NCBI GenBank assembly: GCA_963695855.1 | Contig: CAVOHZ010000008.1 | Location: 448,001-512,000, forward strand | Reading direction: 5' to 3' | DNA length: 64,000 nt | Origin: an uncultured Nitrososphaerales archaeon | GTDB taxonomy: Archaea > Thermoproteota > Nitrososphaeria > Nitrososphaerales > Nitrososphaeraceae | Shown here: piece by piece, positions 38,940 to 46,144 of the stretch | Layout of the letters: each line of letters starts with the position of its first letter | How positions within the stretch are numbered: position 1 is the first letter of the stretch | Made by a program: the position numbers and the translations under genes | Notes under the pieces: generated by a model | What the model saw: the letters and a program-made list of their open reading frames with translations, nothing else | Told to the model about the DNA's origin: nothing | Database searches by the model: none

Positions 38940-39968
38940 TTATAGTTTGTCATCATTCGAGATAGAGATTGATATACTTTCATTAACAACTTTAATCAAT
39001 TTATATATCGATATAGGCTTCTTTAGAATGTTAAATTTATAATTACATTCTAGGTCATCAGAAGTGCTCATTATAATTACATTCATTTTAGGATTTATTT
39101 CTAACAGTCTAGTAGCCAAAAATAATCCATTCATTCGTGACATTCTATCGTTGGTAATTAGTAATGAGTATTTACTCAAATTTTTCTTGATGTGCTTATA
39201 TGCTAATAGTGGATCAGTAAAAGAACAAACATCATAGCCATTCATTTTTAATGTCTCACTGAATAAGTTTACTAGATAGGCATCATCGTCAACTATAGCT
39301 ATAGATTTGTTAAATTTTTGCAATTTGCTGTGAACTTTTAATTGGTTGTTTGCTTCTTTAAGTTGCTCATACAATTCTGCTTGTATCCAAAGACTTTCAA
39401 ATATAGAAGCATATGATGAAGCAATACACTTGCTATTAGAGTAGGCAGCCAATCCTGATGCATCATAAGAACTATCCTTTGTATCATCTTTTGTTTCTAT
39501 AATTAGAGATTCGTTTTTATCAACTACTACAATTCCAATCCTAGTATCCAAGCTCATCTCAATAGCCCTAATATCTATCTCAGGAAATACCAACATTACT
39601 TCATTTACTATCTGTCTAATTTGCTTCTCATCAGCATGGATTAATACTCTAACTTTTATATCATTTTCTAGTACTTCCTTAAATAGATGCATTATACCCA
39701 TACGTGTTTGACGTCGAAACGCATGAATTGAGGGAAATATTCTTAGTACTTCTTGTTCTGCTGATTTTATTAGGTCATAAGCTAGCTTTATTGATTCCCT
39801 AGGATTTTGAATAATCTCTATGTTAGATGATCTAATTCCTCCTTCCTCTCCTCCTTCTTCTATTCTTCTTTTAGTGACCAATTTATTCAGTTTGGAGTAT
39901 AATTCTTTTAGTAGCTCTCTTCTGGATAACTCCGTCATTTTTCTTTTTATTTTTATACTGAAAATCAT
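38940..39968 (-). CDS. Chimeric signalling protein: histidine-kinase-associated sensor domain fused directly to a receiver domain
   Basis: IEIIQNP...IKSAEQEVL...SYASIFESLW.QAELYEQLK then SIAIVDDD...KKP receiver; no HisKA/HATPase between them. Confidence 0.7.
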   Translation of the reverse strand: MIFSIKIKRKMTELSRRELLKELYSKLNKLVTKRRIEEGGEEGGIRSSNIEIIQNPRESIKLAYDLIKSAEQEVLRIFPSIHAFRRQTRMGIMHLFKEVLENDIKVRVLIHADEKQIRQIVNEVMLVFPEIDIRAIEMSLDTRIGIVVVDKNESLIIETKDDTKDSSYDASGLAAYSNSKCIASSYASIFESLWIQAELYEQLKEANNQLKVHSKLQKFNKSIAIVDDDAYLVNLFSETLKMNGYDVCSFTDPLLAYKHIKKNLSKYSLLITNDRMSRMNGLFLATRLLEINPKMNVIIMSTSDDLECNYKFNILKKPISIYKLIKVVNESISISISNDDKL

Positions 39969-40191: not shown

Positions 40192-41089
40192 TAGTATTAT
40201 ATATTGATGAATATAAAGCTCTCCTTCAAAAAACTAATCAATTGAAAAGTAATAGCTTCTAAAACCTTACACATTTTAATTACTATATATAGAATAAGAA
40301 ATAGGCTTGTCAAATGTTAAGCAAGTCTTTCAGACTCCTATAATAATATAGATTGTAATAAGTGTTTGGTTAATGTCTCTATCTATACCAAAGAGAATAT
40401 TTATTATCATATCAGTTAATTCAGTAATATCATACATTAGAAAATTTGGTGCTGTTAAGTTAATTTCTCTTTCTTTAATAAAATGAATTTTATTTCTGAA
40501 TTATAGAAATATAAAATAATCTATTCCAATTGTATACATGTCATAGATCACAATTTTATTTATTGTTATTGTTAATACCTGGATAATAATCATCAAAACA
40601 TTCGGTATTTTTTAGGAAAAATACAGGCTTGAGGATGATGTTATGTTCTACCATCTCTATACATAGTACATGTTTTCCATATTTGTCAGCTAATGATCTA
40701 ATGAATTTTTCAGCAATAGGCATGTTTCTCTCCTCTGATATATAGATTCCAAGCACAGAACTATACTGGTCCTATACAAAACTATAACCAGAAATGCTAG
40801 GTACCAATTTGAATAATGGTTTCATCTATTATTAAATGCTTATACTTTTTTTCTTTTGTGAATATGACATGAACCAAATCTCTGGATCCAATTCCAAACA
40901 GAAACATAACTTCTTTTCTTATCTCTAAAGATAACGAATGTTTTAGACGTATTTCTAAAACTTAAACCAAGAAAATACAAATACAAAGAATACGTAACAG
41001 GAAAAGTAGACGTTCTATTTCTTTCAAATTTAATTTTCATATAATAGATAGGATATTCTTAGCTATAGCGTTGACTGGTAAACTTAACA

Positions 41090-42529
41090 TCCATGAAAAT
41101 ATACCTGTATGCTGATTATCTTTTCTATCCTGTTTAGCCTCATTTTGTTATATCTTTCTATCTATCAAACATTGTCGACAATAGCCTCCGCTATATGTGG
41201 CATCGTTGTTCTCTCAAGTCATCGTATTGTTATTGTCTAACGAATTATCTTTATTGAGATCCAATCTTCTTCAGATTTTCCAGTTTCTGTTCATATCTAC
41301 TCCTGTTTATGTTTCTATATAATTGGTGTCTTGTTAGCATGTACCATATTATAACAAGCATCTCCTTTGCTGTTGCAACTATTGCTTTGCCGTGTCCTTT
41401 TCTTTGTTTTATTCTTTCATAGAATATTCTCATGTGATGGTCATGTCTTATTGCAGATAATGAACACTGTACTAGCATTCATCTCAGCAAAGGAGAACCT
41501 TGTTTTGTTATTCTACCTGTTTTTATTTTTCCGGATGATTCTCTTGTTGATGGTGATAATCCTGCATAACGAACAAGTTTACATGGTGTAGAGAATCTAT
41601 TGATATCCCTATTTCTGTTGATATCAGCATGGCAGAAAAAATGTCTATTCCTGTTATACTGACAAGTATCTTTATATCTTGACTGTCTTGCCAGGCATAT
41701 GTTGCTATCTCTTTTAATACTATTTCTATCTGGTTATCTATTGATTCTATTGATTCTATTGATGCTAGTGTTGTATTCAGTATTATTTTGTCTATCGGTG
41801 AAACTGAGAGTGATTTTAGCCAGTTAACTCCAGATTTTCCAAATATGTCTGTCAGTTCTGTTCTGTATTCATACTTGTCCAAAATAGCATGAATCTTGTT
41901 TGCTAATTTTGTTTATGTTCTAGACAAGACTATTCTATGTCTGACCAGACTCCTTTTTTCCCTAAATTCCTTTACAGGTACATATTACTCGCATACCAAT
42001 CAATCCAGTTCTCAGCAGATCAGATAATATACGTGCATCAAGTTTATCTGATTTTATCTTTGCTTGTGCTATTATCTTTGTCTTGTATGGATTTGCTAGT
42101 ACTGTATCTATTCCATTATCTTCTAACGTATCATGTATTCTCATCCACATGTTTCCTGTAGATTCCAGTACTGCATTACATTTTTTTGTTCTATGATTAT
42201 GTATCCTTTTAATCAATTCTAATATTCCCTGATAACCGTTACCAAAGAAGAATTCATTCAGTATCCTTCCCCTATCATCTTTTAGAGCTGCCATGCACTT
42301 TCTCTTTCCAACATCTATTCCAAGATGATTCAATTTTTTTCATTCACGATTTTTTTTATTTGTTGGCTAACAACAGGCGGCAAACATCCATACACTCTCT
42401 AAGAGTACTATGATAGCCACTTTAGATAAATAAGGTTCAGTCAGAGCCTCACTCTCCTCCGCAGTATGTTAAGTTTGAACCTAGCCAACATACAACAATG
42501 GTATAACCCAGAAGATTTTCATATCGTCA
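41090..42529 (-). mobile_element. IS110 family element with frameshifted DEDD recombinase (fragments 41251-42333)
   Basis: LGIDVGK, LESTG, KSDKLDA and C-terminal KAIVATAKEML motifs; CA core at 41088-41089 and 42528-42529; sub-terminal IR atgaaaat (41093-41100) / attttcat (42515-42522). Confidence 0.9.
42361..42490 (-). ncRNA. Putative IS110 bridge/seek RNA (target-binding and donor-binding loops)
   Basis: Outer stem tgttggcta/tagccaaca; stem aggttca/tgaacct enclosing CAGAGCCT and TGTTAAGTT (both target halves); stem gcggc/gccac enclosing CATCCAT (one donor half) and hairpin actct-cta-agagt. Confidence 0.75.
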
Positions 42530-42779
42530 GAGCCTAGGAAAGAGTAAGAATACTTATATTAATTGGTATAAAAGTAATAATCGGCACGATAATAAATGAT
42601 TTAACATTTCTATTTGGAAGGGGACATCTAACACGTTTTTTAGTGAACCAAAATTAAAGATTTATTTTAATTCTGAAACCGATATAATTTCAAAAGAAGA
42701 TAAAAAATGTAGTTTACAGTTTGATAGTAAAACTACTGATAGTAATGGAAAATAAAATAATTAAAATCTATGTCTAGAT

Positions 42780-43083: not shown

Positions 43084-44601
43084 ATGCAATTAGCTCAAAC
43101 AGATTTAGATCTAAGCAAGAAATGCATGGAGATAGTGAATGAAATAGAACAATCGAATATAAAATGGGTTCGATTGAATTTTTGCGATCCTTTTGGTTTT
43201 TTACAACAAATAAGTGTCCAAAGTGAAGAGATAACAGAAGATGCGTTTAAAAACGGTATTCCTAGGCTAGATGGAAGTTCGATAAGAGGGTTCAGAGAGA
43301 TTCAGGAATCTGATATGCTGCTAAAGCCAGATCCAACTACTTTTGCTGTTTTACCAAATTATTTTGATAAAGATCATCACAATTATAATAACACTTACAG
43401 ATCAACAGCTGCCCGTATGTTTGTGGATATATATGAGGGCTTTAAGGGTACCCGTTACACTCGAGATCCTAGATTTATTGCACAGAAAGCTGCTCAAGTT
43501 GCAAAGGATAAAGGTTTTGAAAACAGCTATTGGGGTCCAGAATTGGAATTTTTTGTATTCAACAATATAAGACTGTTGCCAAATGCCATGTCAGCAGTTA
43601 ATTGCTCAGGAGGTACTGGATATTCTATTGAATCTACTGAGGCTCCGTGGGGGAATGGTAATGAAGGTGCAGCAGGATACACAATTCCTTTCAGAAGTGG
43701 GTATTTTCCAGCGCCACCTGCAGATAGTTTGACGGACTTTAGGGATGAAGTATCCGACATGCTACGCCAATATTTTGGAATCACGGTTGAAGCCCATCAT
43801 CATGAGGTAGCTACGGCGGGACAATGTGAAATACAAATGTCGTTTGCTAGTCTTGTTTCTATGGCTGATCAGGTAGTCACATACAAGAAAACAGTAAAGG
43901 AAACTGCTGCAAAACGTGGAATGGTAGCAAATTTTATGCCAAAACCGGTTGCACTAGATAACGGATCTGGAATGCATGTTAGCCAGAGTCTGTGGGGAAA
44001 GAAAAAAAATGATGAAGTAAATTTGTTTTATGATCCTGCTGATGAATATGCAGAGTTGAGTCAAACTGCATTTTACTATATAGGAGGGCTGATAGAACAT
44101 GCTGAGGCACTATGTGCCATTACTAATCCGACAACGAATTCTTATAGAAGGTTAGTGCCAGGATTCGAGGCTCCAATAAATGTTGCATGGAGCAAGATGA
44201 ACAGGTCAGCAAGTATAAGGATTCCTGCTCACTTTAGAAAAATGGAAAAAAGAAAGAGGATAGAGTTAAGAACACCAGATCCTAGTTCCAATATCTATCT
44301 TGTTGAGGCTGCATTGTTACTTGCAGGTCTGGATGGAATCAACAAAAAATCTTCAGTTCCAGAACCAGTAGATGCAGATATCTACAAGCTATCCGAAGAG
44401 AAAAAAACAGAATATGGAATTAAAAAATTGCCAACATCTTTGCAGGATGCCATAGAATCGTTAGAGAGTGATATGGAATTTCTAAAGCCGGCATTTACAA
44501 GTGATTTTCTAGAAATGTATTGTGATATTAAAAAAGATGAACATGTACAAGTTGCATCGATTCCATCGCCAAGAGAATTCTATATGTATGGTAACGTCTG
44601 A
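43084..44601 (+). CDS. glnA: Glutamine synthetase type I
   Basis: DGSSIRGF, GPELEFF, HHHEVATAGQCEI, FMPKP...NGSGMH, NSYRRLVPGFEAP, NRSASIRIP and RIELR.PDP motifs; TATA-like tttatat about 27-33 bp upstream. Confidence 0.95.
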   Translation: MQLAQTDLDLSKKCMEIVNEIEQSNIKWVRLNFCDPFGFLQQISVQSEEITEDAFKNGIPRLDGSSIRGFREIQESDMLLKPDPTTFAVLPNYFDKDHHNYNNTYRSTAARMFVDIYEGFKGTRYTRDPRFIAQKAAQVAKDKGFENSYWGPELEFFVFNNIRLLPNAMSAVNCSGGTGYSIESTEAPWGNGNEGAAGYTIPFRSGYFPAPPADSLTDFRDEVSDMLRQYFGITVEAHHHEVATAGQCEIQMSFASLVSMADQVVTYKKTVKETAAKRGMVANFMPKPVALDNGSGMHVSQSLWGKKKNDEVNLFYDPADEYAELSQTAFYYIGGLIEHAEALCAITNPTTNSYRRLVPGFEAPINVAWSKMNRSASIRIPAHFRKMEKRKRIELRTPDPSSNIYLVEAALLLAGLDGINKKSSVPEPVDADIYKLSEEKKTEYGIKKLPTSLQDAIESLESDMEFLKPAFTSDFLEMYCDIKKDEHVQVASIPSPREFYMYGNV

Positions 44602-44644
44602 TGGTCAGTTGCTATTATATTTCATTTAGAGTTGGATAATTATC

Positions 44645-46144
44645 ATGCCATATTCAAAAGATGTTCTAGATTTAAAAAGACATATTTTAAAAGCAGCTGA
44701 ATCATCCTCTGGCTATTTTGATCTAAATAGACTTATCGTTGACGTAAGAAAAGTAGATAATTCAGAAATTCCATATTCTGGCCTAGGAGCTCGTCCTCCG
44801 AACGATTATTTTCATTCTATCAAGATAATTGGGGCAGAGATAAGACCCGAAGAAGATGATGTCAGATACAATGACATCGATACTACCTTCACATTGGGAG
44901 GAAGATATTCTAGCAATGTTATAACTACTAATGTGCCATTTTTTGTTTCTGGGATGAGCTATGGCTCATTAAAACTTCCTGCTAAAATAGCACTGCATCT
45001 TGCGTTAAACAGGCTTGCTAAAGAAGGGATAAACATGATAATGAATACTGGAGAGGGTGGAGCGTTACCGTGGGAACTGTACGGCTCGGAAGAATCTTGG
45101 TCAAACGTTTCCAAAAAAAGACGTGAGATTATCCTAGACTATGCTGAACGATTATTGAAAGAGCACAATCTAGAGTCAATAGACAGGGATCTCCTTTTTT
45201 CTCGTTTCTATCCATTGGTTACTCAGTATGCTTCGGGAAGATTCTGGAAAGATCCTAGTTATCTATTGAGCGCTGACGCCATAGAAATAAAGATTGGTCA
45301 GGGTGCAAAGATAGGTCATGGTGGATTATTACCGGGTCCAAAGGTAACAGATCTGGTTGCAGAGAATAGGGGAATTCCACCTTACAAGGCAGCACATTCA
45401 CCATCAAGACACCTTGATATTTTGGGACCTGAAGACTTGGTGGCAAAGGTTCTGGAGCTGCGAGAAATTACGGATTGGCGGACTCCTATAATTGTAAAGG
45501 TTGGATGTTCTCGCGTATATGATGATATTGAAATCATTCTCAAATCATATGCAGATGCAGCTTCCATTGATGGTTTTGTAGGCGGAACTGGTGCCGCTCC
45601 GTGGGAACTACGAGATACCGTTGGAATAAATATAATACCATCTCTTATTCCTTCGAGAGAAGCGATTGAAGATTATTATTTACCTGATGAAAGGGATGAA
45701 TTTAGATTACTCGTTCATGGTGGTGTATGGGATTCAGAAAGAATTGCTAAATGTATTGCATTAGGTGCTGATGGTGTAGGTATAGGAACAGGTTTTATGC
45801 TTGCAATGGGATGTACTCTTGTGCAAGATTGTTATACAAATTCATGCCCAGCAGGCATAACGGGATCATATGAAAAATTGGACATAGAGACAAGTGTAAC
45901 TGGAATAGTAAATTATGTTAAAGGAACATTATTTGAACTAAAGAATATTGCTGGTTCGCTAGGAAGAAAAAGTATTCATGATCTTAGGAAAGAGGACCTT
46001 GTTGGAACAGACGAGTTGTCCAGCATGATTAGCGGATTGCCATTAGCGGGCGGCGAAACTTTTAAAGATTTGGTAAAGGCAAGGGTAAAAACTGTTATTG
46101 ATAGTAGAAGGAAGGAAGGAGAGAGAGTAATTGAGAGGTTTTGA
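44645..46144 (+). CDS. Glutamate synthase FMN-binding subunit (GltB domain 2 / GlxD-like)
   Basis: GMSYGSL, NTGEGG, QYASGRF, EIKIGQGAK.GHGG.LPG.KV, GGTGAAP and CTLVQDCYTNSCPAGI [3Fe-4S] motif. Confidence 0.9.
   Translation: MPYSKDVLDLKRHILKAAESSSGYFDLNRLIVDVRKVDNSEIPYSGLGARPPNDYFHSIKIIGAEIRPEEDDVRYNDIDTTFTLGGRYSSNVITTNVPFFVSGMSYGSLKLPAKIALHLALNRLAKEGINMIMNTGEGGALPWELYGSEESWSNVSKKRREIILDYAERLLKEHNLESIDRDLLFSRFYPLVTQYASGRFWKDPSYLLSADAIEIKIGQGAKIGHGGLLPGPKVTDLVAENRGIPPYKAAHSPSRHLDILGPEDLVAKVLELREITDWRTPIIVKVGCSRVYDDIEIILKSYADAASIDGFVGGTGAAPWELRDTVGINIIPSLIPSREAIEDYYLPDERDEFRLLVHGGVWDSERIAKCIALGADGVGIGTGFMLAMGCTLVQDCYTNSCPAGITGSYEKLDIETSVTGIVNYVKGTLFELKNIAGSLGRKSIHDLRKEDLVGTDELSSMISGLPLAGGETFKDLVKARVKTVIDSRRKEGERVIERF

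Follow-up and report, generated by a model that had tools for sequence, protein, structure and literature searches.

Among insertion sequences of the IS1111 group, IS4321 and IS5075 are said to take the terminal repeats of Tn21-family transposons as their targets. Here we set beside these and other described systems a decayed, IS1111-like element of the IS110 family that occupies 41090-42529 (minus strand, 1440 bp) of a 64,000-nucleotide (nt) window, by which we mean the whole stretch of DNA analyzed (C8:448001-512000, where C8 is contig CAVOHZ010000008.1), in the genome of an uncultured Nitrososphaerales archaeon, an ammonia oxidizer of soil (3.55 Mb, ~31% G+C, 11 contigs; labeled G000 in our comparisons). 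In the account of Durrant et al. (2024; PMC11208160), IS621 has a sub-terminal repeat of 2-3 bp, a CT core, and repetitive extragenic palindromic (REP) targets, and the sub-terminal repeats of IS1111 elements measure 7-17 bp. The IS1111 survey of Siddiquee et al. (2024; PMC11187229) gives a usual length of 11-13 bp and places the non-coding region downstream of the transposase, with a few exceptions upstream. As described by Pares-Guillen et al. (2025; PMC12288879), MITEPpu9, a MITE (miniature inverted-repeat transposable element) of ISPpu9, lacks a transposase and carries an unrelated small RNA, Ssr9. We consider it highly probable that the element in the window is a decayed IS110-family element with a bridge RNA aimed at the IS6-type repeats of its genome, with insertion at one fixed core position. 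This reading draws on the anatomy of the element, a fixed site at 12 of 12 complete copies, a fixed orientation, covariation of the guides with both target and donor DNA, and a preference for repeats that match the guide, all of which were observed.

Insertion Site and Occupied Repeats

On the plus strand, the left flank of the element ends in AACTTAACA (41081-41089), the element begins with TCCATGAAAAT at 41090 and ends with ATTTTCATATCGTCA at 42529, and the right flank reads GAGCC (42530-42534). Joining the flanks without 41090-42529 yields AACTTAACAGAGCC, the reverse complement of which, GGCTCTGTTAAGTT, is identical at 12 of 14 positions to GGTGCTGTTAAGTT at 40448-40461, with mismatches at positions 3 and 4. 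Because the left flank and the element both terminate in CA, the boundary can be shifted by 2 bases, and there is no duplication otherwise. The element interrupts an IS6 terminal inverted repeat 5 bases from its tip, at a CA/TG core, and the IS6 copy that it splits comprises 40448-41089 and 42530-42534. The left terminal inverted repeat of this IS6 copy (GGTGCTGTTAAGTTA, 40448-40462, plus strand; C8:488448) is unoccupied, belongs to the GGTGC type, and lies 66 bp from the transposase-like region. Its right repeat (minus strand) consists of an inner part, TG-TTAAGTTTACCAG when read inward (41075-41089), that is complementary at 9 of 9 positions to the 5' target guide described below, and an outer part of 5 bases, GGCTC (42530-42534), that is cut off by the insertion and agrees with the 3' guide GGCUC at all 5 positions. 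The element itself has sub-terminal inverted repeats of 8 bp, ATGAAAAT (41093-41100), located 3 bases from the transposase-distal end and conserved in the other copies, and ATTTTCAT (42515-42522), located 7 bases from the RNA-proximal end and invariant in an alignment of 31 sequences. The initial annotation of this locus had assigned the element to the IS110 family, reconstructed the excision product with its 12/14 repeat match, and described an exact insertion at a CA core, free of other duplication, together with 8-bp sub-terminal repeats. The product, the match, and the sub-terminal repeats are read directly in the sequence as claimed, the same junctions recur at 12 of 12 complete copies, and the family assignment is borne out by an intact paralogue through PF01548, PF02371, and NF033542.

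The genome contains 12 complete elements, which also set the junctions: the window copy (c1), four other full-length copies (c2-c5) that are 85.6-87.3% identical to it by BLAST, and seven transposase-less minis (m1-m7). All 12 are flanked on the plus strand by ...TTAA(C/G/A)TTAACA before the element and G(A/G)(G/A)C(C/T) after it; in the direction of the transposase, a GGCTC-like 5-mer is followed by the element (TGAC...CATGGA) and then by TGTTAA(G/C/T)TT, and each outer flank is different. At eight of the 12 sites, the element occupies an end of an IS6 copy or of an IS6-type MITE: c1 and m7 abut remnants of IS6 transposase genes at opposite IS6 ends (start end for c1, stop end for m7), and c3, c4, c5, m2, m3, and m6 lie in MITEs of ~100-120 bp with IS6-type repeats at both ends, m3 being in the opposite MITE end. 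Two further minis, m1 and m4, are located within IS6-like end fragments, and c2 occupies an IS6-like repeat of 17 nt that adjoins a nested IS5-like element.

The occupied 5-mers comprise nine GGCTC and one each of AGCTC, GGCCC, and GGTCC (n = 12), and the insertion at GGTCC has a GGUCC guide. When compared with a census of empty sites, defined as uninterrupted sites of the form N5-TGTTAANTTA, GGCTC is occupied nine times and empty nine times, GGTGC is occupied 0 times versus 23 empty, and GGCTG is occupied 0 times versus 14 empty. Most of the insertions are therefore in the minority repeat type that matches the guide, with none in the two commonest types. This is the outcome that the initial annotation had anticipated in proposing that copies should be found at the same CA of one repeat type and be missing from the GGTGC type: all 12 copies are at the same TG/CA core of GGCTC-like repeats, and there are none in the 23 GGTGC and 14 GGCTG sites. 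Its expectation that only one IS6 end should be hit, because one guide covers the part of the repeat in which the ends differ, survives in part. It is true that the two ends of the window copy differ in their five outer bases and that the guide spans these; however, a one-end restriction is not general, since both IS6 ends are used where the guide matches. Thus m7 is in the opposite IS6 end with its matching GGUCC guide, m3 is in the other MITE end, in related genomes the transposase-start end has three insertions and the stop end has four, and one relative (L007) has a GGUGC guide and sits in a GGTGC-type IS6 repeat.

Bridge RNA, Guide Covariation, and Rival Explanations

Both guide loops are located upstream of the transposase start, in a region of 208 nt; a guide was not recognized in the 162-nt region downstream of the transposase. 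The bridge RNA gene (42362-42490, minus strand) has an outer stem that pairs 42482-42489 with 42362-42369 and contains two loops, and this layout is the same in every copy (outer stem GUUGGCUA/UAGCCAAC). The first loop, which is the target-binding loop (42434-42481, minus strand), is closed by the stem GGUUCA/UGAACC, with AAACUUAACA, a small hairpin, and GAGGCUCUGA inside it; its 5' guide is AAACUUAACA (42467-42476) and its 3' guide is GGCUCUG (42442-42448). The 5' guide is the complement of TG-TTAAGTTT, i.e., the core and right target on the top strand, and GGCUC-UG has the sense of the left target and core, so that it pairs with the bottom strand. The second loop, which is the donor-binding loop (42377-42420, minus strand), is closed in the window copy by GUGGC/GCCGC and across copies by G(U/C)GGC/GCC(A/G)C, a stem that encloses UAUCAUAGU, a hairpin, and GAAUGGAUGUUU; its 5' guide is UAUC (42412-42415) and its 3' guide is AUGGAUG (42385-42391), in which AUGGA-UG has the sense of the 3' end of the element plus the core (41088-41094). 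The guide RNA against an IS6-type repeat that had been postulated from the window alone is accordingly located in the target loop, as AAACUUAACA and GGCUCUG, with the covariation presented below in its support.

The alignment of 31 sequences includes 11 elements of the same genome and 20 elements of related genomes, m5 having been excluded for a 24-nt duplication in its first loop. Run on this alignment, RNAalifold returns the outer stem, the stems of both loops, and the inner hairpin of the first loop, with compensatory change in four pairs. Cells of the alignment are paired in 98.4% of cases versus 21-38% when the partners are slid by 1-3 columns, and the covariation score was matched by 0 of 500 shuffles. 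The stem pairs of the target loop are kept in 97.7% of cells, pair 78/92 of its inner hairpin changes from AU to GC in 11 sequences, and pair 136/194 of the donor-loop stem changes from CG to UA in 11-12 sequences. One invariant U-G pair aside, there are nine G-U cells versus one A-C cell, which fits the transposase-sense strand. For the RNA of the intact paralogue, the folding z is -3.17, and none of 200 shuffles does as well. A scan of window positions 40300-42700 against Rfam 15 (E up to 1) returned no match, which places the bridge RNA outside the curated families. Four public RNA-library runs contain a few low-depth pieces of related elements, two of them over the RNA region (42287-42484 and 42409-42499), although these are assembled contigs and are silent on transcription; no element joints were reported among the assembled contigs of the public runs, none of which held half of the sampled element words.

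A search of one genome per species identified 29 related loci, with element ends that could be placed in most of them; all are from Nitrososphaeraceae/Nitrososphaerales assemblies except one Bathyarchaeia contig (59% identity). At E up to 1e-80, the transposase of c3 has matches in 8 of 121 sampled genomes of the family, its own included, and in 3 of 18 genera, so the lineage is patchily distributed. Between the 3' target guide and the five upstream flanking bases, 150 of 155 positions agree, compared with a permuted mean of 106.8 (0 of 10,000 permutations as high), and the match is perfect in 26 of 31 elements. This agreement extends over nine 5-mers: GGCTC, GGTCC, GGTGC, GGCTG, GGCCC, AGTTG, AGTTC, GGGTT, and GTTAA. 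For the 5' target guide and the seven bases after the core, 163 of 196 positions agree in 28 elements (permuted mean 141.2; 0 of 10,000), and the donor guides agree with the element ends at 120/124 and 136/140 nt (0 of 10,000 permutations each). Nine of the 12 elements in the window's genome match their own guide at the variable right-target position. The relatives also include a sister lineage (L011, L016, L019, L026, L027, and L028) that has the left-target guide AGUUG or AGUUC and a site of the form ...GTTAAC-AGTT(G/C), then TG, then TAAA...; the upstream flank of L028 reads GGCTCTGTTAACAGTTG, which places that insertion 17 nt inside the IS6-like repeat of some other element.

The association with IS6 could follow from IS6 abundance alone if the element recognized a short generic motif that is present in IS6 repeats by chance. 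The guides read only ~14-15 nt, the m5 and c2 sites have just 11-17 nt of repeat-like sequence, and, of the 88 genome sites that resemble the target (15-mer GGCTCTGTTAAGTTA, at most 2 mismatches), 27 are classed by a simple rule as neither IS6 ends (44 sites) nor MITE-like (17 sites); within 1 mismatch of the 15-mer, 16 sites are empty. Nevertheless, IS6 or MITE ends account for no fewer than 61 of the 88 sites, whereas chance gives 4-10 sites (three Markov-simulated genomes contained 4, 10, and 7). Among the 27 others, several are the partner end of an occupied MITE or a repeat that an IS5-like element has split. Moreover, the guides in other genomes track local IS6 variants (GGTGC, GGCTG, GGTCC, and GGCCC), and an IS6 transposase is encoded directly downstream, in both orientations, at 7 of 23 related loci, with an eighth ~840 nt off. 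In the upstream control, an adjacent IS6 transposase was found at 0 of 24 loci, with a match ~170 nt away at L006 and a weak one at L026. On balance, we regard recognition of a generic motif as improbable.

We give still less credence to the possibility that the copies arose by duplication, or by IS6-mediated movement of a composite in which an IS110 element was already inserted in an IS6 end or MITE. Such an origin would accommodate the 65 identical inner-flank bases of c3 and c4 and the fact that c3, c4, m2, and m6 are in one MITE family. However, in 12 of 12 cases the five outer bases of the repeat are found beyond the element, followed by unique flanks, the targets come from at least four different host elements, the guides covary with the flanks across genomes, and empty paralogous sites with an uninterrupted repeat are found, e.g., at C6:172423 and C10:1746000. 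That the protein alone picks the target, as a classical site-specific recombinase would, with the upstream structure serving as a promoter or leader, agrees with the absence of a matching family from Rfam 15 but is the least credible explanation of all, given that sequences in both loops correspond, on the strands expected, to the target and the element ends and covary with them (nine 5-mers, 150/155, 0/10,000), that the NF033542 model passed by the transposase is described as RNA-guided, and that an RNA-guided mechanism is established, according to the accounts in PMC11208160 and PMC11187229, for IS621, ISEc11, and ISEc21.

We return to a bridge RNA aimed at IS6-type repeats, a reading that also has several observations to its disadvantage. 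A recognizable IS6 transposase is present at just 2 of the 12 sites in the window's genome, most of which are in MITEs or solo repeats, and the m5 site (GGCTC, then TGTTAATGTTAGG...) resembles an IS6 repeat over only ~11 nt. Three of the 12 elements, m2, m5, and m6, mismatch their own guide at the variable right-target position, and the donor 5' guide UAUC is complementary only to nt 5-8 of the element (GATA) and not to the core. The window copy, which is a pseudogene, has an RNA that folds less well (z = -1.92; 6 of 200 shuffles as good). Six orphan right-end fragments (40-104 nt, 72-90% identity) have the GAGCC flank in one case and other flanks in five. Finally, the IS6 reference protein described below scores 98.9 bits on NCBIfam NF033587, under the cut-off of 125. 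Given that most of the sites are in MITEs or solo repeats, we use "IS6-type terminal repeat" as the accurate name of the target, rather than "IS6 element."

If the element is guided in this way, its DEDD recombinase would be directed by a bridge (or seeker) RNA from the ~200-nt non-coding region upstream of the transposase. The target loop would read GGCTC-TG-TTAAGTT, the consensus terminal inverted repeat of the IS6 elements and MITEs of the genome, on both strands, and the donor loop would read the two ends of the element through AUGGA-UG and UAUC. Because the loops would read both the target and the element's own ends, a single position and orientation of insertion would be expected, at the TG core that follows base 5 of the repeat and with no target duplication. 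By analogy with the mechanism published for the family (in the accounts of PMC11208160 and PMC11187229), a circle would be excised with the ends joined at the core, and a complex of recombinase and RNA would place one loop on the joined ends and the other on the target, followed by strand exchange at the core. It is plausible that IS6-type repeats provide the element with harmless landing sites; it is likewise plausible that splitting the repeat disables that IS6 end, which would be immobilized.

Transposases, Minis, and Host Repeats

The transposase pseudogene of the window copy (41251-42333, minus strand; DEDD and Transposase_20 domains, with the PF01548 match at C8:490010-490324) has two frameshifts relative to the intact paralogue as well as in-frame stops, and a tblastn alignment of the c3 protein to it proceeds through frames 2, 3, and 2; this copy is dead. 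An uninterrupted transposase of 356 amino acids (aa) is encoded by two of the five full-length copies, c3 (C10:929323-930763) and c4 (C8:48398-49842), on which ground we rejected a programmed frameshift as the reading of the broken window gene. The c2 transposase gene has one frameshift, and that of c5 has a nested insertion of ~1 kb; within the c5 gene we noted a repeat of ~1.03 kb (C10:167345-168374) that has 8 bp of the element on both sides and ~36 BLAST matches elsewhere. The c3 transposase (L001:732-1802) scores 77.3 bits on PF01548 and 79.3 bits on PF02371, both past the cut-off, and 223.3 bits on NCBIfam NF033542 (cut-off 140), a model described as an RNA-guided transposase. In a search of PDB sequences, the only matches were distant ones, to the recombinases of IS621 (E 6e-9) and ISCro4 (E 9e-9), the structures of which have been solved, and the best plasmid-borne relatives by tblastn are haloarchaeal and rhizobial genes annotated only as "IS110 family transposase" (36-40% identity); neither set of matches separates the IS110 group from the IS1111 group. 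The end probes of c3 and c4 are identical and their transposases are 98.6% identical, and m1, m3, and m6 share 99.5-100% identity in the end probes although their sites differ. Near-identical copies at different sites suggest that the element has been active recently.

Other members of the IS110 family are present in the genome. A second type, with a 378-aa transposase that is 42% identical to that of c3, is located at C10:287391-288700, C10:289954-291263, and C8:370647-371356 and has upstream, by eye, a two-loop RNA look-alike with other guide sequences. A third type (362 aa) is located at C10:140735, C10:267181, and C10:1598728. Orphan fragments of the RNA-proximal end of the main element were observed at C10:1382477 (flanked by GAGCC), C8:155468, C10:489150, C10:949601, C10:1007353, and C8:431303.

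The seven minis, identified by a two-end search, are 318-355 bp long and have kept ~215 nt at the RNA-proximal end plus ~40-100 nt at the other, so that each retains the whole bridge RNA and both ends (C8:113677-114014, C8:187904-188221, C10:1354506-1354842, C10:1407616-1407948, C10:1746114-1746451, C3:37351-37671, and C3:465563-465917). Their donor guides, UAUA and AUAGA, match their own diverged ends, TATA and ATAGA, and not the ends of the full-length element. The sites of m2 and m6 fit the target guide of the full-length element better than they fit their own. We posit that the minis are mobilized in trans by the two intact transposases. The 24-nt duplication in m5 (C3:465563-465917) is a tandem duplication of the 3' half of the first loop (...GAGTAAGGCTCTGACTGAACCAA twice).

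IS6-family elements encode a DDE transposase of the IS240/IS26 type and are ~0.7-0.9 kb long, with one open reading frame (ORF) and short terminal inverted repeats starting with GG, and an 8-bp target duplication is a hallmark of the family. The reference copy in this genome (C6:6938-7661, 724 bp) encodes a 220-aa ORF whose product scores 39.4 bits on PF13610 (cut-off 27) but falls short on NF033587, and its ends, GGCTGTGTTAATTTAAG and GGCTCTGTTCAGATAAG, are common to many copies. IS6 and its miniature derivatives are much commoner in the genome than the IS110-family element. There are 32 PF13610 matches and 87 IS6 transposase-like stretches (tblastn), and perfect 8/8-bp duplications flank 6 of 22 repeat pairs of IS6 size and 3 of 11 of MITE size, and none of the remainder. 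In the window, the remnant of the IS6 transposase gene (40514-41070, minus strand; C8:488514-489070) was identified by tblastn with the genome's own IS6 proteins, and the region is 77-81% identical to other IS6 copies over ~440 bp (blastn). ORFs of 66 aa are all that remain, and on this basis we call the copy degraded. Its flanks, gaaaattt and taggaaag, show no 8-bp target duplication.

The IS6-type repeats are also the site of a second kind of nesting. An IS5-like element (C8:376315-377240, with ~46 further BLAST matches; also C10:1052441-1053370 and C6:215890-216819) measures ~920 bp, has GAGCCTATCCCAAAA at its ends, encodes its transposase in two ORFs, and shows a 3-bp duplication, TAA/TTA; at three or more places, it is inserted within the TTAA of an IS6-type repeat. 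A ~930-bp repeat beside c2 was considered as an IS6 target and rejected, because it is IS5-like (GAGCCTATCCCAAAA ends, 3-bp duplication) and is nested next to the 17-nt IS6-like repeat. A further unit consists of an IS6-like terminal repeat followed ~95 nt on by an ORF starting with MMYVGMDLHK (C10:1354843-1355410, C10:1254513-1254619 on the minus strand, C3:298792-300412, and C3:365865-365971). This ORF has weak similarity to PF01548 (DEDD) and is broken in at least one copy; on C3, an inverted IS6-like repeat 2.6 kb away bounds the far side of the unit. The nest of IS6 and IS110 elements in the window occupies a 3.1-kb gap between a response-regulator gene (minus strand, 38940-39968) and a glutamine synthetase gene followed by a gene with a glutamate-synthase domain (both plus strand, 43084-46144).

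Comparison with Described Systems

To our knowledge, bridge-RNA systems have hardly been described in archaea. Targeting of one transposon by another is already known as a kind, and it is the archaeal example that is new: it provides a natural case of bridge-RNA targeting that is aimed, and re-aimed, among the ends of another transposon family. The known mechanism is unchanged by it, and what is extended is the host range, the target range, and the architectural variety. Nine left-target 5-mers, a TG core, and minis with a donor loop of their own form a panel for testing how this branch reads DNA, and, if splitting of the repeat does disable IS6, the element would act as a natural brake on IS6 spread in the IS-rich genomes of Nitrososphaeraceae. 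The literature searched holds no account of IS110-family insertion into IS6 repeats or of these Nitrososphaeraceae elements; the supplementary tables of PMC11208160 and PMC11187229 may hold cases.

A broader reading, which we put forward tentatively and to which we give somewhat less than even chances, is that these ammonia-oxidizing archaea harbor a three-tier, RNA-programmed hierarchy. IS6 elements and their MITEs would parasitize the genome; the IS1111-like bridge-RNA element would parasitize their repeats, with guides repeatedly re-programmed to the variants GGCTC, GGTGC, GGCTG, GGTCC, and GGCCC; and minis that keep a self-matched bridge RNA would parasitize its recombinase. As part of the same reading, the element may be an intermediate state of the split between IS110 and IS1111, for which an intermediate has been proposed with the RNA moving between element ends, given that its ends and guide order are of the IS1111 type and its upstream RNA is of the IS110 type.

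With IS4321 and IS5075, as these are reported, the element shares a DEDD transposase, sub-terminal inverted repeats, and insertion at a single position and in a single orientation in the terminal repeat of another transposon. Those elements are reportedly bacterial, with 38-bp repeats of the Tn3 family as targets and a non-coding region downstream of the transposase, whereas the system described here is archaeal (Nitrososphaeraceae), is directed to IS6-family repeats and MITEs, has its RNA upstream, and exhibits several natural guide variants that track variants of the repeat.

Compared with IS621 as presented in PMC11208160, the RNA is likewise upstream and has two internal loops, the target loop first and the donor loop second, and each loop likewise reads both strands including the core, with the left target paired on the bottom strand and the right target on the top strand. 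The differences from that account are a reversed order of the guides within each loop, an 8-bp sub-terminal repeat, a TG core, and targets in IS6 repeats, and the protein is only distantly similar (E 6e-9). Of the features of the IS110 group, to which IS621-like elements belong, the upstream RNA is thus present, but the guide order and the short repeat are not. With the IS1111 seekRNA elements ISEc11, ISPa11, and ISKpn4, as characterized by Siddiquee et al. (2024; PMC11187229), the element has in common sub-terminal inverted repeats; extensions of 7 and 3 bp, TGACGAT and GGA, if the core is counted at the RNA-proximal end (5 and 5 bp if counted otherwise); and an RNA in which the complement of the top strand, AAACUUAACA, is 5' of the match to the bottom strand, GGCUCUG. 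Unlike what that survey gives as usual for IS1111, the RNA is upstream of the transposase, and the sub-terminal repeat, at 8 bp, is at the short end of the published range. The element therefore combines ends and a guide order of the IS1111 type with an upstream RNA, a likeness that is defined by ends and RNA and not by transposase phylogeny. The minis, in turn, resemble MITEPpu9 as described in PMC12288879 in lacking a transposase, in having IS110-family ends, and in being presumably moved in trans; in contrast to MITEPpu9, all seven retain the bridge RNA itself, with a donor loop that is matched to their own diverged ends.

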